Shown piece after piece: positions 13,106 to 16,575 of a stretch of 64,000 nt of DNA (the first letter of the stretch is position 1; every line of letters begins with the position of its first letter). A model generated the notes under the pieces. That model was not told where the DNA came from. It did not search any database and saw only the letters and a program-made list of their open reading frames with translations. The stretch lies in contig VSIX01000032.1 in the NCBI GenBank assembly GCA_008086245.1, positions 25,742-89,741 on the forward strand. Reading direction: 5' to 3'. This stretch comes from Candidatus Mcinerneyibacterium aminivorans (lineage in GTDB: Bacteria > Macinerneyibacteriota > Macinerneyibacteria > Macinerneyibacteriales > Macinerneyibacteriaceae). The position numbers were made by a program, and so were the translations under genes.

Positions 13106-13825
13106 ATGGATAAAATAATTCAAATGTTAAATAATATTCATATAAAAGAGGCCCTTGATGTTGCAACGGGAAGGGGACAGTATATAAATTTTTTAAAAGA
13201 GAATCTGGGTAGTTTCGAAAAAATCATAGGACTTGATAATCATGAATATTCTCTGAAAATGGCAAAGAAAAAATTTGAAGAAGATTCAAGGATAGAATTT
13301 ATTGAAAAAGATTTATATAGACTGGATTCAGAAAAAAACAAATACGATCTTATCAGTATATCCAATTCCCTACATCATTTTGAAAAACCAAAGGAATGCT
13401 TAAGAAAGTTATTCTGCTTATTAAATGAAAATGGATATTTGATATTGAATGAGATGCATAAAGACGGTGAACAAATGGAAAGTCAGAAAATACATATTAA
13501 GCTTCATCACTGGAGTGCCAGAATCGATAGGTATAATGGTATTTATCATGCAGAAACCTTTAACCATAAAAAGATCGATAATTTAACAAATTCATTGGGT
13601 TTAAAAGATAAAAAGGTGGTTAAATTTAAATATCCATATGATGAAGAAAATCAGGCAGAGATAAAAAAACATTTGAAAAAAATATTAAATAAAAAGATGG
13701 AGCAGATGAATAAAAATTGTAATATATATTTTGATTTAAAAAAAGAAAAAGATAAAATAATAAAAAATTTAAATAAATATGGATTTGCTTCTGCCGGTAT
13801 GACATTTATAATTGGCAGGAAATAG
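13106..13825 (+). CDS. Class I SAM-dependent methyltransferase
   Basis: LDVATGRG, SNSLHHF. Confidence 0.85.
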   Translation: MDKIIQMLNNIHIKEALDVATGRGQYINFLKENLGSFEKIIGLDNHEYSLKMAKKKFEEDSRIEFIEKDLYRLDSEKNKYDLISISNSLHHFEKPKECLRKLFCLLNENGYLILNEMHKDGEQMESQKIHIKLHHWSARIDRYNGIYHAETFNHKKIDNLTNSLGLKDKKVVKFKYPYDEENQAEIKKHLKKILNKKMEQMNKNCNIYFDLKKEKDKIIKNLNKYGFASAGMTFIIGRK

Positions 13826-13862
13826 AGAAAAAAATATTAAATCATATAGGGAGTTTTTGTTT

Positions 13863-14042
13863 ATGCCAAAATTATTTGCAATATTAATACCAATTGGAAC
13901 GATACTTATTACTACAGTTGTTGTAACATTATTAAATAGTAAGGAGAGTGATGAAGATAAAAAAACAAAATACTTTCCTGTAATTTTGTTTATAGGTGCT
14001 TTAATTTTGGGTATTATTTTATTTCTGATTAATAAATTTTAA
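13863..14042 (+). CDS. Small two-TM membrane protein
   Basis: GGGAG RBS before ATG 13863; two hydrophobic segments. Confidence 0.55.
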   Translation: MPKLFAILIPIGTILITTVVVTLLNSKESDEDKKTKYFPVILFIGALILGIILFLINKF

Positions 14043-14066
14043 ACAATAAGAGTAGATTATTTTAAA

Positions 14067-14552
14067 ATGAAATATAGAAAACCGGAAAAGTCCGATATAG
14101 CAGGGTTGATAAGATTATCCAAAGAATTTTCGATTGAATCCAGGTGGGGACATCTTATTCCCGTGGGACAGATTTATAATATTGAAGAGGCAAGAGAAAA
14201 CCTTTTTGGCAGTAATATTTATGAATGCCGGGTGGCAAAGAAAAAAGATAAACTCATTGGTTATATTGCTGTGAAAGAACATGAAAAAATCTATGAAGCT
14301 TCTATACTTGTTGACTCTGATTACAGAAAACAGGGTGTCGGGAAAAATCTAACGGATAATATATTTAAAAGCATACCCCGGGATATAGAAGTAGAAGCAT
14401 GGGTGGCAGATTTTAATGAAGCATCGATTAAAGCAACCCCCCAAATGGGATTTGAATTTAAAAAAAAGATATATGAAACTGAATACATCCCGGATAAGGA
14501 GTTTTATGTATACATTTATTCAAGATATGGCGATTACAAAAATCAGCTTTAA
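14067..14552 (+). CDS. GNAT family N-acetyltransferase
   Basis: YRKQGVGK, NEASIK...MGF. Confidence 0.8.
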   Translation: MKYRKPEKSDIAGLIRLSKEFSIESRWGHLIPVGQIYNIEEARENLFGSNIYECRVAKKKDKLIGYIAVKEHEKIYEASILVDSDYRKQGVGKNLTDNIFKSIPRDIEVEAWVADFNEASIKATPQMGFEFKKKIYETEYIPDKEFYVYIYSRYGDYKNQL

Positions 14553-14593
14553 TGGTTTATATAAGTAGATAAAAAGGAATAACTACCAAAGCA

Positions 14594-14930
14594 GTCATCC
14601 TGAATTTAATTTCAGGATTACATTTTGTATGAGAAAATATTGGGAAGATGCTGAAACAAGTTCAGCATGACAGTAATAAGGATAGTCATCCTGAATTTAT
14701 TTCAGGATCTCATTTTGTATGAGAAAATATTAAGAAGATGCTGAAACGAGTTCAGCATGACAGTAAAAGGAAGTCATTCTGAGCTTGTCTCAGAATCTCC
14801 TATAGGAATAAAGAGAAATATTGTAGGAGATTCTGAAACAAGTATGTTTGAGAATATAATATTGGGAAGATGCTGAAACAAGTTCAGCATGACATTATCA
14901 GGTAGTCGTTCTGAATTTATTTCAGGATCT
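14594..14930. repeat. Upstream array of 26-nt palindromic REP-like repeats (GTC-ATnnyGAr-YTYRT-yTCrnnAT-CT)
   Basis: Copies: +14594-14620, -14646-14671, +14685-14710, -14736-14761, +14773-14798, -14828-14843 (truncated), -14868-14893, +14905-14930. Confidence 0.95.
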
Positions 14931-14964
14931 ACTGTGAATTATAACAAATGGAAAGGAATTTATT

Positions 14965-15255
14965 ATGAATAAAAAGGGCTTTGTATATTTTCTTACCAAT
15001 AGAAATAATAAAGTTTTATATATCGGAGTTACCAGCAATTTGAAAAAAAGAATCTATGAACATAAGAATAAATTAATTGAAGGATTTACAAACAAATATA
15101 ACTGTGAGAAACTGGTGTATTATGAAAAATATAATGATATAAATGAAGCAATTGAAAGAGAGAAGCAACTTAAAAATTGGCATAGAGATTGGAAGAATAA
15201 TTTAGTTGAAAAAGAAAACAGTGAATGGAAAGATTTAAGTGAAGAGTTTTTGTAG
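14965..15255 (+). CDS. Stand-alone GIY-YIG nuclease (96 aa)
   Basis: GFVYFL...LYIGVT, conserved R (KKRIYEH), GFT.KY, LVYYE, catalytic E in AIEREKQLK, W.R.WK..L...N.EW.DL. Confidence 0.93.
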   Translation: MNKKGFVYFLTNRNNKVLYIGVTSNLKKRIYEHKNKLIEGFTNKYNCEKLVYYEKYNDINEAIEREKQLKNWHRDWKNNLVEKENSEWKDLSEEFL

Positions 15256-15259
15256 ATAA

Positions 15260-15727
15260 TGAATCCTGAGATAAATCAGTGTCATAGTATGAAGTCATTT
15301 CGAACTTGTTTCGGAATCTCCTTATGTAAACAGCTTTGTATTAGGTAGATGTTGAAACAAGGTTTTAAAAGATATATTGTAAGAAGATATTGAAACAAGT
15401 TCAATATGACATGAGGTCAAAGTCATTCCGAATTTATTTCGGAATCTTATTTTGTATGAGAAAATATTAAGAAGATGCTGAAACGAGTTCAGCATGACAG
15501 TAAAAGGAAGTCATTCTGAGCTTGTCTCAGAATCTCCTGTAGAAATAAAGAGAAATATTGTAGAAGATGCTGAAACAAGTATGTTTGAGAATATAATATT
15601 GGGAAGATGCTGAAACAAGTTCAGCATGACAGTAATAAGGATAATCATCCTGAATTTATTTCAGGGTCTATCTCACAATCTCCTCTTAAATAAAGAAAAA
15701 TTTTGAAATAGATGCTTAAATGAACTG
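15260..15727. repeat. Downstream array of the same 26-nt palindromic repeats
   Basis: Copies: -~15260-15279 (degenerate), +15294-15319, -15347-15361 (truncated), -15385-15410, +15422-15447, -15473-15498, +15510-15535, -15565-15580 (truncated), -15605-15630, +15644-15669, possible relic -15710-15727. Confidence 0.93.
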
Positions 15728-15891
15728 TAATATTTTCATATTTCAAAAAAATGAATAATAAAAACGCCCGTAGGAATTTTTAATATACACAAACATCAAT
15801 ATCGAAAGTATAAATAAAAGCTTGCAAATACCGTTGCAATTATATAAAATAAAATATGATTTAAATGAAACTAAAATAAAAATGGGGGAAA

Positions 15892-16575
15892 ATGTTTTAT
15901 TTTTTTCTGGCAATACTGCCCGGGATTTTAATAATTGTATATTTTTATAAAAGAGATAGGCTTGAACCCGAGCCTAAATGGATGATTGTAAAAACCTTTT
16001 TCCTGGGAATTCTTGCTTCTTCAGCTGCTTTGTTTTTTAATAGTTTGTTTGGAGGGATATTTCAAAATAATTTGTTGATTGGCGCAGTATTAATTGCTCC
16101 TATTGTCGAAGAATCGTGCAAATTTTATTCGGTTAAATATTTTAGATTTAAAGATAAACATTTTACCGAACCAATGGATGGAATAGTATATGGAGTGACT
16201 GTAGCTGTTGGTTTTGCTGTAATGGAAAATCTCAATTATGTGTACAGAGCCCTACAGGAAGGACATGTTTATTATACACTTATAATAAGAGGTTTTCTAT
16301 CGGTACCGGCCCATGCGTTATTTGCAGTAATCTGGGGTTATGCACTGGGAATGTATAAATTTGGGAAGAAAGATGAAAATTTTGTTAAAAATTCTCTTAT
16401 TCAGGCAATGATATTCCACTCTGCTTTTAATGCAATTGCAGTTTTGGTAAATCCAATTTGGGATATTTTCTATCTTGCTCTTCTTTCAGTATACCTATGG
16501 TACATAGCGGATAAAGATATAAGAAGTGCAATAAAAAATTCTCCCTATCAAAATGATTTTGATGAAGAAAAGTAA
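15892..16575 (+). CDS. prsW: PrsW family intramembrane metalloprotease
   Basis: DRLEPEP, APIVEESCK, DGIVYG..VAVGFA..EN, HA..A, H..FN. Confidence 0.9.
   Translation: MFYFFLAILPGILIIVYFYKRDRLEPEPKWMIVKTFFLGILASSAALFFNSLFGGIFQNNLLIGAVLIAPIVEESCKFYSVKYFRFKDKHFTEPMDGIVYGVTVAVGFAVMENLNYVYRALQEGHVYYTLIIRGFLSVPAHALFAVIWGYALGMYKFGKKDENFVKNSLIQAMIFHSAFNAIAVLVNPIWDIFYLALLSVYLWYIADKDIRSAIKNSPYQNDFDEEK

Follow-up and report, generated by a model that had tools for sequence, protein, structure and literature searches.

Between positions 14594 and 15669 of a stretch of DNA from Candidatus Mcinerneyibacterium aminivorans (the window, 64,000 nucleotides analysed as a whole), short palindromic repeats, alternately oriented, flank a small open reading frame on either side. 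The initial annotation took these repeats for strand-specific folded ssDNA or RNA hairpins with a sequence-specific foot, as in HUH/REP or attC recognition, rather than dsDNA operators, and left the GIY-YIG gene inside the array unmentioned. The locus raises the question whether the folded structure is indeed what is maintained, and which enzyme would recognize it.

Anatomy of the array and its gene

The repeat unit is 26 nt long and consists of a GTC tag, an 8-bp stem opening with A-T/T-A, a 5-nt loop and a CT tail. A search of the 64-kb window with the pattern GTCATNNNGANNTNNTNTCNNNATCT, allowing up to 2 mismatches, gave 13 matches, all at 14646-15669, where 0.23 were expected from 100 shuffles, none of which reached 13. 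A covariance model recovered 14 copies in the window at E ≤ 0.0011, all inside 14591-15672, with 7 matches upstream and 7 downstream of the GIY-YIG ORF. Over the 2.15-Mb assembly the model gave 33 matches, including the 14 of the window array. The features are as follows.

14594..14621, plus strand: leftmost hairpin copy; GTC tag, stem ATCCTGAA/TTCAGGAT, 6-nt loop and an atypical TA tail (not CT); model match 14591-14623 with 22 bits; left end of the 1,049-bp block, joint at 14617
14646..14671, minus strand: hairpin copy; tag TGTC, stem ATGCTGAA, loop CTTGT; 0 pattern mismatches, 47.3 bits; minimum-energy DNA fold is an 8-bp hairpin of -6.7 kcal/mol
14685..14710, plus strand: hairpin copy; tag AGTC, stem ATCCTGAA, loop TTTAT; DNA fold of -6.2 kcal/mol, z -4.8
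14736..14761, minus strand: hairpin copy; stem ATGCTGAA, loop CTCGT; from pattern, fold and model
14773..14798, plus strand: hairpin copy; stem ATTCTGAG/CTCAGAAT, loop CTTGT; from pattern, fold and model
14824..14856, minus strand: degenerate partial copy lacking the GTC tag, with extra loop bases and one stem mismatch; found as an inverted-repeat arm, no covariance-model match at E ≤ 1
14868..14893, minus strand: hairpin copy; stem ATGCTGAA, loop CTTGT; from pattern and model
14905..14930, plus strand: hairpin copy closest to the gene start (34 nt upstream); two G.T stem cells; canonical hairpin not its minimum-energy fold
14965..15255, plus strand: ssn-like gene, predicted to encode a 96-aa single-domain GIY-YIG nuclease; from ORF and Pfam
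15294..15319, plus strand: hairpin copy 38 nt past the stop codon; stem ATTTCGAA/TTCGGAAT, one T.G cell
15347..15376, minus strand: degenerate partial copy, 3' arm and tail only; from the direct-repeat family, no model match
15385..15410, minus strand: hairpin copy; stem ATATTGAA/TTCAATAT; from pattern, fold and model
15422..15447, plus strand: hairpin copy; stem ATTCCGAA/TTCGGAAT, loop TTTAT; from pattern, fold and model
15473..15498, minus strand: hairpin copy; stem ATGCTGAA, loop CTCGT; from pattern and model
15510..15535, plus strand: hairpin copy; stem ATTCTGAG/CTCAGAAT; from pattern and model
15562..15594, minus strand: degenerate partial copy, counterpart of 14824-14856 in the duplicated 214-nt block; from direct and inverted repeats
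15605..15630, minus strand: hairpin copy; stem ATGCTGAA, loop CTTGT; from pattern and model
15644..15669, plus strand: rightmost hairpin copy; tag ATC instead of GTC, one T.G cell; 2 pattern mismatches, 33.7 bits; right end of the 1,049-bp block, joint at 15667
14618..15666, no strand: 1,049-bp block with the array and the ssn gene, absent from an otherwise near-identical contig (run X2)

All five perfectly paired arm variants that had been noticed earlier are present in the window, namely ATCCTGAA at 14685, ATGCTGAA at 14646, 14736, 14868, 15473 and 15605, ATTCTGAG at 14773 and 15510, ATTCCGAA at 15422 and ATATTGAA at 15385. The tag reads TGTC in 6/6 minus-strand copies; on the plus strand it is AGTC in 6/7 and AATC in the remaining one (15644). 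The 214-nt segment 14684-14897 recurs at 15421-15634 with 95% identity. A strand asymmetry is directly observed, since one and the same site scores 42-47 bits with the model on the tagged strand versus 12-14 bits on the opposite strand. In DNA folding the canonical 8-bp hairpin was the minimum-energy fold in 7/9 single copies (-3 to -7 kcal/mol). Promoter-like sites in the array showed no excess over chance, with 9 found and 9.9 expected. Dispersed copies on contigs C26, C100 and C6 are arranged head to head with a 33-nt spacer and have stems unlike each other. Many genomic copies sit at contig ends, and paralogous repeat units of the genome differ through insertions within hairpin arms.

The gene product matches Pfam PF01541 (E 2.2e-19) over residues 4-78 of 96 aa. 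The sole other Pfam match, T5orf172 (PF10544, 4.5e-06), overlaps the same region, and a separate second domain was not found. Residues Y8, Y19, R29, H33 and E66 do not vary across 12 homologues. A PDB sequence search with the 96-aa protein gave no matches at E ≤ 0.01, and NCBIfam gave sub-threshold matches only, to group I intron endonuclease and UvrC. By Pfam assignment, the array lies next to genes for a GNAT acetyltransferase and for a PrsW protease.

Proteins 62-73% identical to the window protein are encoded by 80 metagenome loci, and the combination of such a protein with the same hairpin extends across several phyla. A pattern in which the variable stem positions were left free matched 206 sites in 78/80 loci, with 0 for the reversed control. 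A scan for structure only, within 400 nt of the gene, gave 207 perfect 8-bp hairpins in 76/80 loci, so that the association of gene and hairpin is observed well beyond the window. GTC stands on exactly one strand in 196 of these 207 hairpins, and a C directly follows the palindrome in 194 of the 196 (in 187/189 of the GTC hairpins with a 5-nt loop). The loop is 5 nt long in 189/196 tagged hairpins, and for these 189 the base before GTC is T in 155, C in 28, A in 4 and G in 2. Stem position 1 is A in 189/189, position 2 is T in 174 and C in 15, and the tail is CT in 177, CC in 14 and CA in 3 of 196 hairpins. Among the window copies, the near-invariance that the initial annotation had attributed to the GTC tag, the A-T stem base, the GA/TC pair and the terminal CT is borne out. 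Tags face outward from the gene, with 72 plus versus 23 minus upstream and 73 minus versus 28 plus downstream.

Compensatory variation in stems and loops

Covariation within the stem was assessed on 13 window copies (10 distinct rows) against 500 shuffles. Standard pairs filled 100% of the cells versus 88.9% after shuffling (0/500 shuffles as high), changes on both sides occurred in 4/8 pairs (2/500 shuffles), and 11 cells were doubly changed versus 2.7 in shuffled data (0/500). These shuffle tests overstate independence because the copies are related by duplication. When the partners were slid by 1-3 columns, at most 55% of the cells could pair. The relatives gave the same picture on 71 distinct sequences: 97.9% of the cells were paired versus 87.3% shuffled (0/500), both-sided change was found in 5/8 pairs, and there were 73 doubly changed cells versus 23.4. 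Their covariation score was 0.342 versus 0.139 for shuffled data, and at most 0.093 with slid partners. One stem pair occurred across the relatives as CG in 24, GC in 23, UA in 14 and AU in 2 sequences. The excess was repeated on the best 150 of 274 covariance-model matches. Compensatory change in the stems, as first proposed from the window, is therefore seen above both shuffled and slid controls, in the window and in the 80 related metagenome loci.

The changes are confined to part of the stem. At positions 2, 3 and 5, and rarely 8, they come in pairs, and positions 1, 4, 6 and 7 are fixed. The loop also covaries in the manner described earlier, C..G versus T..A, i.e. the closing pair C-G or T-A is kept, and this linkage would fit a DNA type II tetraloop. 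Where a locus has both an inner upstream and an inner downstream copy, their stems differ in 48/53 cases; pairing is kept inside each hairpin and not between flanking copies.

A further claim was that imperfect copies deviate only by G-T wobbles on the GTC-tagged strand. This holds in the window, where the copies at 14905, 15294 and 15644 have four non-Watson-Crick cells, 4/4 of them G.T on the GTC strand, but it does not extend to the relatives, in which 62 distinct sites gave 17 mismatched cells of mixed kind (5 G.T, 5 A.C and 7 other). The wobble strand bias was rejected as a proof of strandedness, with 4/4 in the window but 5 G.T versus 5 A.C in the relatives. The proposal of a strand-specific folded hairpin with a sequence-specific foot, as opposed to a dsDNA operator, draws its support from the covariation and the strand asymmetry.

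Relation to Ssn nucleases and alternative explanations

Gene and repeats together make it highly probable that the window locus is an Ssn locus, in which the gene for a 96-aa GIY-YIG nuclease lies within an array of its own recognition hairpins, and that these hairpins are Ssn-related motifs (SRMs), equivalent to CGTC/TGTC-tagged REPs of the type with an 8-bp stem and a 5-nt loop. Ssn nucleases with Ssn-related motifs in the same gene-array architecture were described by Chenal et al. (Nat Commun 2025; PMC11893778). The system is already published, and the present locus adds an AT-rich subtype. In literature from 2024 on, SsnA, GIY-YIG and single-stranded DNA were treated together only in PMC11893778, and a literature search gave no paper joining GIY-YIG with repetitive extragenic palindromic.

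According to that report, ssnA codes for a 94-aa protein of GIY-YIG family cd10448. SsnA recognizes the folded NTS hairpin solely in ssDNA and on a single strand, neither dsDNA nor RNA being bound, and cleavage takes place directly upstream of the motif. Cleavage is determined by the 3 nt that precede the palindrome on its 5' side, and binding by the C that immediately follows it on the 3' side (PMC11893778). The bases conserved here coincide with these mutagenesis-sensitive ones, the tag with cutting and the C after the palindrome with binding. Judged by a constant +2 offset, Y8, Y19 and E66 of the window protein probably correspond to Y6, Y17 and E64, mutation of which killed N. meningitidis SsnA (PMC11893778). 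As in the Ssn/NTS system, a single-domain GIY-YIG gene of about 95 aa carries hairpin repeats on both flanks, and the hairpins share with NTS a (C/T)GTC tag, an 8-bp stem starting with AT, a short loop, a C straight after the palindrome and an orientation set by the unpaired flanks. NTS has a GC-rich stem and a 4-nt loop; in the window the stems are rich in AT, as in ATGCTGAA and ATCCTGAA, the loops have 5 nt, a CT tail replaces CYRG, and the plus-strand copies carry AGTC. The assembly contains about 33 copies, not hundreds. The AT-rich subfamily is known here from its sequence, Ssn from biochemistry.

Homologues in named genomes connect the two groups, since the window protein is 45-51% identical to proteins whose genes are flanked by NTS-type hairpins. 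The Thiohalobacter thiocyanaticus homologue shares 45% identity over residues 1-96 (E 7e-26), and the hairpins that flank its gene have a core equal to NTS. The Sphingopyxis witflariensis homologue (51% identity) is flanked by CGTC + ATGCTGAA-CTTGT-TTCAGCAT + CCA, which is the same hairpin as in the window. For comparison, the published homology criterion for Ssn was tblastn E<1e-10 (PMC11893778). Exact NTS matches in genome contigs comprised at least 129 loci, with N. meningitidis not among the matches listed. The 96-aa query found no homologue in the N. lactamica and N. mucosa genomes; the 91-aa GIY-YIG gene that they do contain lacks a neighbouring NTS and was judged by sequence to be of a different subfamily.

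The published SRM motif, HGTCWYN(0-2)YYVSBRHN(0-5)WNVSBRGN(0-2)RNCYNB, had no matches in the window or the whole assembly and matched 0/206 of the related sites, although 3 other sites in 2/80 loci did match. The search sequence had been drawn from 29 mostly GC-rich genomes (PMC11893778). The local hairpin strings were also absent from the supplements of PMC11893778 (files 13 and 14 excepted) and PMC3733652. An abundant AT-rich hairpin subtype is thus invisible to the published motif, and it stands beside close homologues from several phyla. Because this subtype is missed, the published share of ssn genes with flanking motifs, at least one SRM near 71% of Ssn homologues and SRMs on both sides in 42% (PMC11893778), is likely an underestimate.

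By analogy with the published homologues, binding, specificity for ssDNA, rather than RNA, and the position of the cut would be as follows. When the DNA becomes single-stranded, during replication or repair or as incoming or transferred DNA, the GTC-tagged strand would fold into the 8-bp hairpin. The nuclease would then bind to this stem and to the unpaired bases at its foot (YGTC 5', C(T) 3') and cleave the tagged strand a few nucleotides upstream of the tag. Such a mechanism would explain why stem positions 2, 3 and 5 (rarely 8) change only in pairs and why the tag, the tail and positions 1, 4, 6 and 7 are fixed. The mechanism initially proposed appears essentially right, and would match the homologue biochemistry. 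A single enzyme may not accept all five arm variants, because N. meningitidis SsnA lost its activity when the palindrome was given a new sequence with the hairpin preserved (PMC11893778); some copies may be inert. Candidate roles include a restraint on the recombination of incoming ssDNA and the propagation of the cassette. Homologues of ComEC and DprA occur in the genome; since 10-11 of 14 control genomes have them too, they are hardly informative on a part played in transformation.

Pairing could also be kept without selection on structure, if one arm is rewritten from the other by intrastrand template switching. Such quasi-palindrome correction is known to act on short palindromes, one-step paired changes would give the same pattern, and the shuffle controls cannot separate the two causes. 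Template switching nevertheless leaves unexplained the asymmetric foot (GTC on one strand in 196/207 hairpins, C after the palindrome in 194/196), the fixed stem positions and the tight link to one gene family. We consider it an improbable explanation by itself; it may be the mutational route that selection then filters. Being palindromic and clustered around a gene, the units might also be operators in dsDNA, or extruded cruciforms, to which a dimeric regulator binds. Recognition of two half-sites by a dimer would not, however, account for compensating pair changes at free positions. Moreover, the flanks are asymmetric and SsnA showed no activity on dsDNA carrying NTS (PMC11893778). The probability of an operator function is close to negligible.

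The hairpins could instead work in RNA, terminating or stabilising transcripts, as has long been proposed for REPs. Eight of the nine terminator-like sites in 14400-16000 are array hairpins with T-rich tails, against 0.5 expected, and many REPs are argued to be transcribed (PMC3733652). Due to the alternating orientation, however, any one transcript carries both strands, and the conserved unpaired GTC tag has no termination role. No Rfam family reached threshold (best 23 bits versus gathering scores of 65-98), and at a permissive threshold the region 13500-16500 gave only chance-level matches to mir-605, mir-590 and AaHKsRNA41 at 22-23 bits. Since SsnA did not bind the RNA form (PMC11893778) and the loop covariation fits DNA type II tetraloops, a primary function in RNA is very unlikely; a secondary RNA effect may still exist. 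Highly unlikely, too, is that the hairpins are REP elements recognized and mobilized by an HUH tyrosine transposase (RAYT), with the GIY-YIG gene as a bystander. REP/RAYT systems are described as likewise using tagged hairpins in inverted doublets, and contig C148 begins with the one RAYT-like fragment of the genome (Y1_Tnp with a DnaA C-terminal HTH), whose upstream flank is missing from the assembly. Yet this contig, which holds the only PF01797 match in the genome, is without any covariance-model match, and no hairpin occurs in the 900 nt downstream of the RAYT-like gene. The tag is (Y)GTC and not GTAG, CGTC repeats are reported never to flank tyrosine transposase genes (PMC3733652), and the hairpins accompany the GIY-YIG gene in 78/80 related loci.

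The comparison with HUH/REP and attC recognition made in the initial annotation is apt for the recognition of a folded strand; the partner is a GIY-YIG Ssn protein and not an HUH/RAYT enzyme or an integron integrase. Like REPtrons, the locus has tagged inverted doublets and clusters flanking the single-copy gene of an enzyme that would recognize them as folded ssDNA, but the fold is GIY-YIG instead of HUH/Y1 and the tag GTC instead of GTAG; the RAYT-like gene lies elsewhere, and hairpins were not found beside it. Integron attC sites are imperfect palindromes of 57-141 nt with extrahelical bases, read by a tyrosine recombinase. The Ssn hairpins resemble them in that a folded single strand would be recognized, that structure is kept more than sequence, and that the cassette may be present or absent at a site; they differ by their perfect 8-bp stems with 5-nt loops and by having GNAT and PrsW genes as neighbours, not an integrase. 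Much of the value of the analysis lies in correct filing of the repeats, which are not a new RNA, a RAYT REP or an attC site.

A further counterpart is the group of CGTC-tagged REPs, catalogued by Di Nocera, De Gregorio and Rocco (2013; PMC3733652) without a known enzyme. As described in that catalogue, CGTC-REPs have CGTC or TGTC tags, 8-9-bp stems opening with A-T pairs and 4-5-nt loops, and they form head-to-head dimers, mostly heterodimers, with no associated transposase (PMC3733652). On stem and loop lengths, which are the whole basis of the assignment, the present hairpins would be filed as CGTC-2. They share with CGTC-2 REPs the CGTC/TGTC tag, the 8-bp stem, complementary A-T at positions 1 and 2, the 5-nt loop and a short unpaired tail, and their dispersed copies are head-to-head doublets with unlike stems. 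In contrast to the CCA consensus tail of CGTC-2 REPs, the tail here is CT(C/T), with CCA only in the Sphingopyxis relative. Unlike CGTC-REPs, for which no dedicated enzyme was found, the window array has a GIY-YIG gene sitting in it. The natural variation of the hairpin amounts to a position-by-position map, which could be useful for work on Ssn enzymes as ssDNA tools.

An empty-site allele

A hairpin-bounded presence/absence allele was observed directly. The near-identical contig from another study (run X2) joins 14617 to 15667 and is without the whole 1,049-bp array and gene. The junction comes right after base 7 of the 3' arm in both end copies, and one complete hairpin remains. It sits at one base common to the two ends, with mismatches on either side, and not in the 14-nt identical stretch. 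Runs X3 and X5 had no reads spanning the array. In a same-genus genome (G001) the ssn gene is missing as well; the synteny there is uninformative on the end points of the block because the flanking GNAT gene is also absent.

Whether Ssn cassettes are mobile was raised as a question, and not tested, in the 2025 paper (PMC11893778). We suggest only tentatively, and regard as somewhat doubtful, that the 1,049-bp block forms a separate cassette, gained or lost by the chromosome when two folded hairpins exchange in register. Ssn units would then be mobile and site-specific, with the hairpins serving as attachment sites, and the gene-less doublets and nested mini-palindromes would be their non-autonomous relatives. 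The observations counted for this reading are the X2 joint, the absence of the gene from G001, the multi-phylum spread and the insertions inside hairpin arms. Slippage between direct repeats would explain the same X2 joint. The empty-site allele fixes both ends of the block exactly, which could serve as a starting point for the question of Ssn mobility. Besides the window array, the genome also contains gene-less head-to-head doublets and nested mini-palindromes.

The hairpin array and the gene it encloses

Direct reading of 14300-16000 and repeat tools showed a dense run of short palindromic units of alternating orientation. In each repeat unit a GTC tag precedes an 8-bp stem starting A-T, T-A with a 5-nt loop, and CT forms the tail; the strand carrying GTC 5' of the hairpin is called the tagged strand. 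With up to two mismatches allowed, the pattern GTCATNNNGANNTNNTNTCNNNATCT had 13 matches in the 64-kb window, all within 14646-15669, compared with a mean of 0.23 expected from shuffles, and none of 100 shuffles reached 13. The five perfectly paired arm variants listed in the initial annotation were all found in the window, and the three imperfect copies deviated, as claimed, in G·T cells alone, on the tagged strand. In the 13 copies, which give 10 distinct rows, all stem cells held standard pairs, against 88.9% with the 3' partners shuffled (0 of 500), and four of the eight stem pairs changed on both sides, which 2 of 500 shuffles reached. Sliding the partners by 1-3 columns lowered pairing to 25-55%. 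In DNA folding the 8-bp hairpin was the minimum-energy structure of seven of nine single copies, at −3 to −7 kcal/mol. Pattern counts, pairing relative to shuffles and DNA folds thus bear out the paired hairpin repeats originally observed. The window copies are not independent because a 214-nt block is duplicated on both sides.

The array encloses a 96-codon ORF (14965-15255), unmentioned in the initial annotation, which consists of one GIY-YIG domain (PF01541, 2.2e-19) and is referred to below as the ssn gene, after the Ssn group of small single-domain GIY-YIG nucleases. It is bracketed by the 214-nt direct repeat (14684-14897 and 15421-15634; 95% identity, 737 nt apart), the arrangement that an integrated circle or a partial tandem duplication would produce. 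The spacer of head-to-head hairpins at 14708-14724 (also 15445-15461) has a small hairpin of its own, CTCAT-TTTGT-ATGAG, according to DNA folding of the doublet.

Hairpins and covariation beside homologous genes

To avoid circularity, three detectors were used in the relatives, 80 metagenome loci kept from a contig scan with the window protein, whose products are 62-73% identical to it. A pattern that held the tag, tail and invariant stem positions constant but let the loop and stem positions 3-5 and 8 vary matched 206 sites, spread over 78 of 80 loci, and had no match in reversed sequence. The second detector set no sequence requirement and took every perfect 8-bp stem closing a 4-6-nt loop that lay no more than 400 nt from the gene. 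This gave 207 hairpins, spread over 76 of 80 loci; GTC stood immediately 5' on exactly one strand in 196 of the 207 and on both strands in none, and in 194 of these 196 tagged hairpins the next base after the hairpin was C. The third, a covariance model, gave 274 matches at E<=0.01. Tags pointed mostly outward (upstream 72 plus versus 23 minus; downstream 73 minus versus 28 plus); the median distance to the gene was 42 nt for upstream copies and 21.5 nt for downstream copies. Among the 53 loci having both an inner upstream and an inner downstream copy, 48 carried unlike stems in the two, so pairing is kept inside each hairpin and not between flanks. Close homologues (64-81% identity) came from sources named Spirochaetaceae/Treponema, WOR-3, Planctomycetota, Nitrospirae and Desulfobacterales.

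Covariation was measured in a set of 71 distinct sequences (window 9, relatives 62), and exceeded both shuffled and slid controls. Paired cells made up 97.9% (shuffled 87.3%; 0 of 500), doubly changed cells numbered 73 (shuffled 23.4; 0 of 500), and five of eight stem pairs changed on both sides, as in 9 of 500 shuffles. The covariation score was 0.342, compared with 0.139 shuffled (0 of 500) and at most 0.093 with partners slid; one stem pair occurred as CG 24, GC 23, UA 14 and AU 2 times. The best 150 of the 274 covariance-model matches gave the same picture in an alignment that is fitted to the structure and biased towards it. The 196 tagged hairpins contained 15 distinct perfect stems. Among the 189 tagged hairpins with a 5-nt loop, stem positions 1, 4, 6 and 7 were almost invariant, positions 2, 3 and 5 changed as pairs only, and position 8 was A in 183 and G in 6.

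The proposed loop covariation (C..G versus T..A) was upheld as well. Loop bases 1 and 4 were C-G in 50 of the 71 sequences, T-A in 13, T-G in 2 and other in 6, and were pairable in 91.5% compared with 78.6% shuffled (0 of 500). In the model alignment, whose structure does not include this pair, the counts were CG 108, UA 17, UG 2 and other 3 (n=130). At least four different stems carried T..A loops. A review of DNA minidumbbells (PMC9975016, available text) classes YYYR tetraloops, CTTG and TTTA among them, as type II DNA loops, closed by pairing of loop bases 1 and 4; the 5-nt loop may be a type II tetraloop with one extra 3' base.

Several other origins of the hairpins were weighed. RNA terminators would account for the T-rich tails on several hairpins, but the hairpins alternate in orientation, and the tag serves no purpose in termination. 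Recognition as a dsDNA operator does not predict the compensating changes. Template switching may supply paired changes, although it leaves the asymmetric foot unexplained. As for a RAYT, the HUH/Y1 transposase of REP elements, the single Y1 transposase fragment lies on another contig with no hairpins adjoining. This RAYT-like fragment (C148:1-828, locus L001) carries a fused DnaA C-terminal-like HTH and is truncated by the contig start, and C148 has no GTC hairpins. Anatomy, strand asymmetry, covariation and gene association are established, and we judge the original reading, a folded single-strand hairpin with a foot, to be sound.

Relation to published Ssn and CGTC-tagged systems

The combination of hairpin and Ssn is already published, and the additions made here are modest. 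In the available text of Chenal et al. 2025 (PMC11893778), SsnA of N. meningitidis is a 94-aa GIY-YIG protein (CDD cd10448) that binds its hairpin site, NTS, as ssDNA only and on one strand only, and neither dsDNA nor RNA. Cleavage falls a few bases upstream of the motif. In mutagenesis, cutting hinged most on the three bases 5' of the palindrome and binding on the C directly after it; changing the palindrome with its structure preserved abolished activity. At least one Ssn-related motif (SRM) lies near 71% of homologues and both sides carry one in 42%; the authors raise an IS-like layout NTS-ssnA-NTS as a hypothesis. The bases conserved in the window and relative hairpins are those important in SsnA mutagenesis. 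By analogy with these homologues, the nuclease would act on single-stranded DNA, binding the tagged strand in its folded form and cutting 5' of the tag. ComEC and DprA are present in the genome, yet they are nearly universal among control genomes.

The window gene is tied to Ssn indirectly, through two homologues. That of Thiohalobacter thiocyanaticus is 45% identical over its full length (E 7e-26), and its flanking hairpin core is that of NTS. That of Sphingopyxis witflariensis is 51% identical and flanked by the window's ATGCTGAA-CTTGT hairpin with a CGTC tag and CCA tail. Residues Y8, Y19 and E66, invariant in 12 homologues, lie two residues beyond the SsnA catalytic Y6, Y17 and E64. With the window protein as query no homologue was found in N. 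lactamica or N. mucosa. The published degenerate SRM sequence matched no copies in the window or genome and none of the 206 relative sites, with only three other sites in 2 of 80 loci; the window subtype lies outside the reach of that search sequence while having the Ssn architecture in common.

The exact NTS motif occurred in at least 129 stretches of genome contigs. Among the matches listed, none was from N. meningitidis, and its exact consensus was seen in MAGs labelled Dehalococcoidia, Planctomycetaceae, Nitrospirae, Verrucomicrobia, Gemmatimonadetes and others. The S. witflariensis genome (G043) had 8 full-length ssn-like matches and, in addition, shorter pieces forming 2 split pairs (10 by tally, in 13 rows); an internal stop interrupts one copy, and one is split. 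Nine loci were kept (L212-L220), of which L212, L215, L216, L218 and L219 have differing flanking hairpin types and L217 and L220 showed no flanking hairpins.

In the available text of Di Nocera et al. 2013 (PMC3733652), CGTC-tagged REPs have 8 or 9 bp stems with a complementary A-T start, 4 or 5 nt loops and a short tail, and the tag is frequently altered to TGTC. Head-to-head dimers are their usual arrangement, heterodimers being the commoner kind in families 2 and 3, and they "apparently lack a dedicated transposase".

An allele without the array, and copies across the assembly

Four public sequencing runs were compared over 13900-16400. Run X1, the best source, gave an identical 264-nt contig on 15150-15413. 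Run X2, from another study, had no cover over 14740-15580 and gave a 559-nt contig (depth 4.1) matching 14132-14617 with one mismatch and one gap and then 15667-15740 with one mismatch, thereby skipping 1,049 bp, the entire array and ssn gene. In the leftmost and rightmost plus-strand copies alike, the joint follows base 7 of the 3' arm, and it leaves a single complete tagged hairpin. The end copies share at most 14 consecutive identical bases, from which we infer that a 31-mer assembly collapse is unlikely. This one contig from one run shows array and gene gained or lost as a unit whose ends lie in hairpins; its joint fits slippage or recombination between direct copies and site-specific insertion alike. 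In the same-genus genome G001 (88% complete), the ssn gene was not found with the window protein as query, and other genes occupy the interval between the conserved neighbours.

The assembly (2.15 Mb, 175 contigs, 30% G+C) holds 28 pattern matches, 14 on the window's contig. The covariance model built from the 71 sequences found 33 copies at E<=0.1, 14 of them at the ssn locus, where sites scored 42-47 bits on the tagged strand versus 12-14 on the opposite strand. The features on other contigs are as follows.

C26:4625-4912 (locus L242:1501-1788), second ssn-like gene; flanks L242:1134-2112
C26:680-900, dispersed hairpin unit
C144:1-230 and 2100-2287, dispersed hairpin units
C43:4980-5220, dispersed hairpin unit
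C17:13600-13830, dispersed hairpin unit
C61:88540-88760, dispersed hairpin unit
C153, both ends, dispersed hairpin units
C4:3260-3394, dispersed hairpin unit
C144:42-100, unit with nested palindromes
C43:5008-5093, unit with nested palindromes
C17:13725-13783, unit with nested palindromes
C26:5417-5502, unit with nested palindromes
C101:2579-2664, unit with nested palindromes
C4:3301-3359, unit with nested palindromes

The C26 paralogue (59% identity) has another, longer palindromic repeat on its flanks: a 112-140-nt composite, containing a CGTC-tagged long imperfect hairpin, is present in two direct copies on the upstream side and two on the downstream side; the paralogue thus appears to have a cognate repeat unlike that of the window. 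A third, distant GIY-YIG gene had no hairpin by eye within about 450 nt on each side. The dispersed hairpins are head-to-head doublets with a 33-nt spacer, set in units of about 190 nt with inverted ends (…CAGGCTGTAAAGAAATA…); many of these lie at contig ends and so probably interrupt the assembly. Paralogous units vary by small palindromic modules nested in the hairpins, one being a 28-nt two-hairpin insert within the 3' arm and another an inner CCTGAA hairpin that sits in the ATGCTGAA hairpin's loop. Covariance-model matches extend over the full length of such copies, taking in 27-54 extra bases. A distinct family of short repeats, typified by GCGAATTGCAAAT / ATTCGCAATTTG, surrounds the hairpin units of C26 (1-120, 560-700 and 860-1030).
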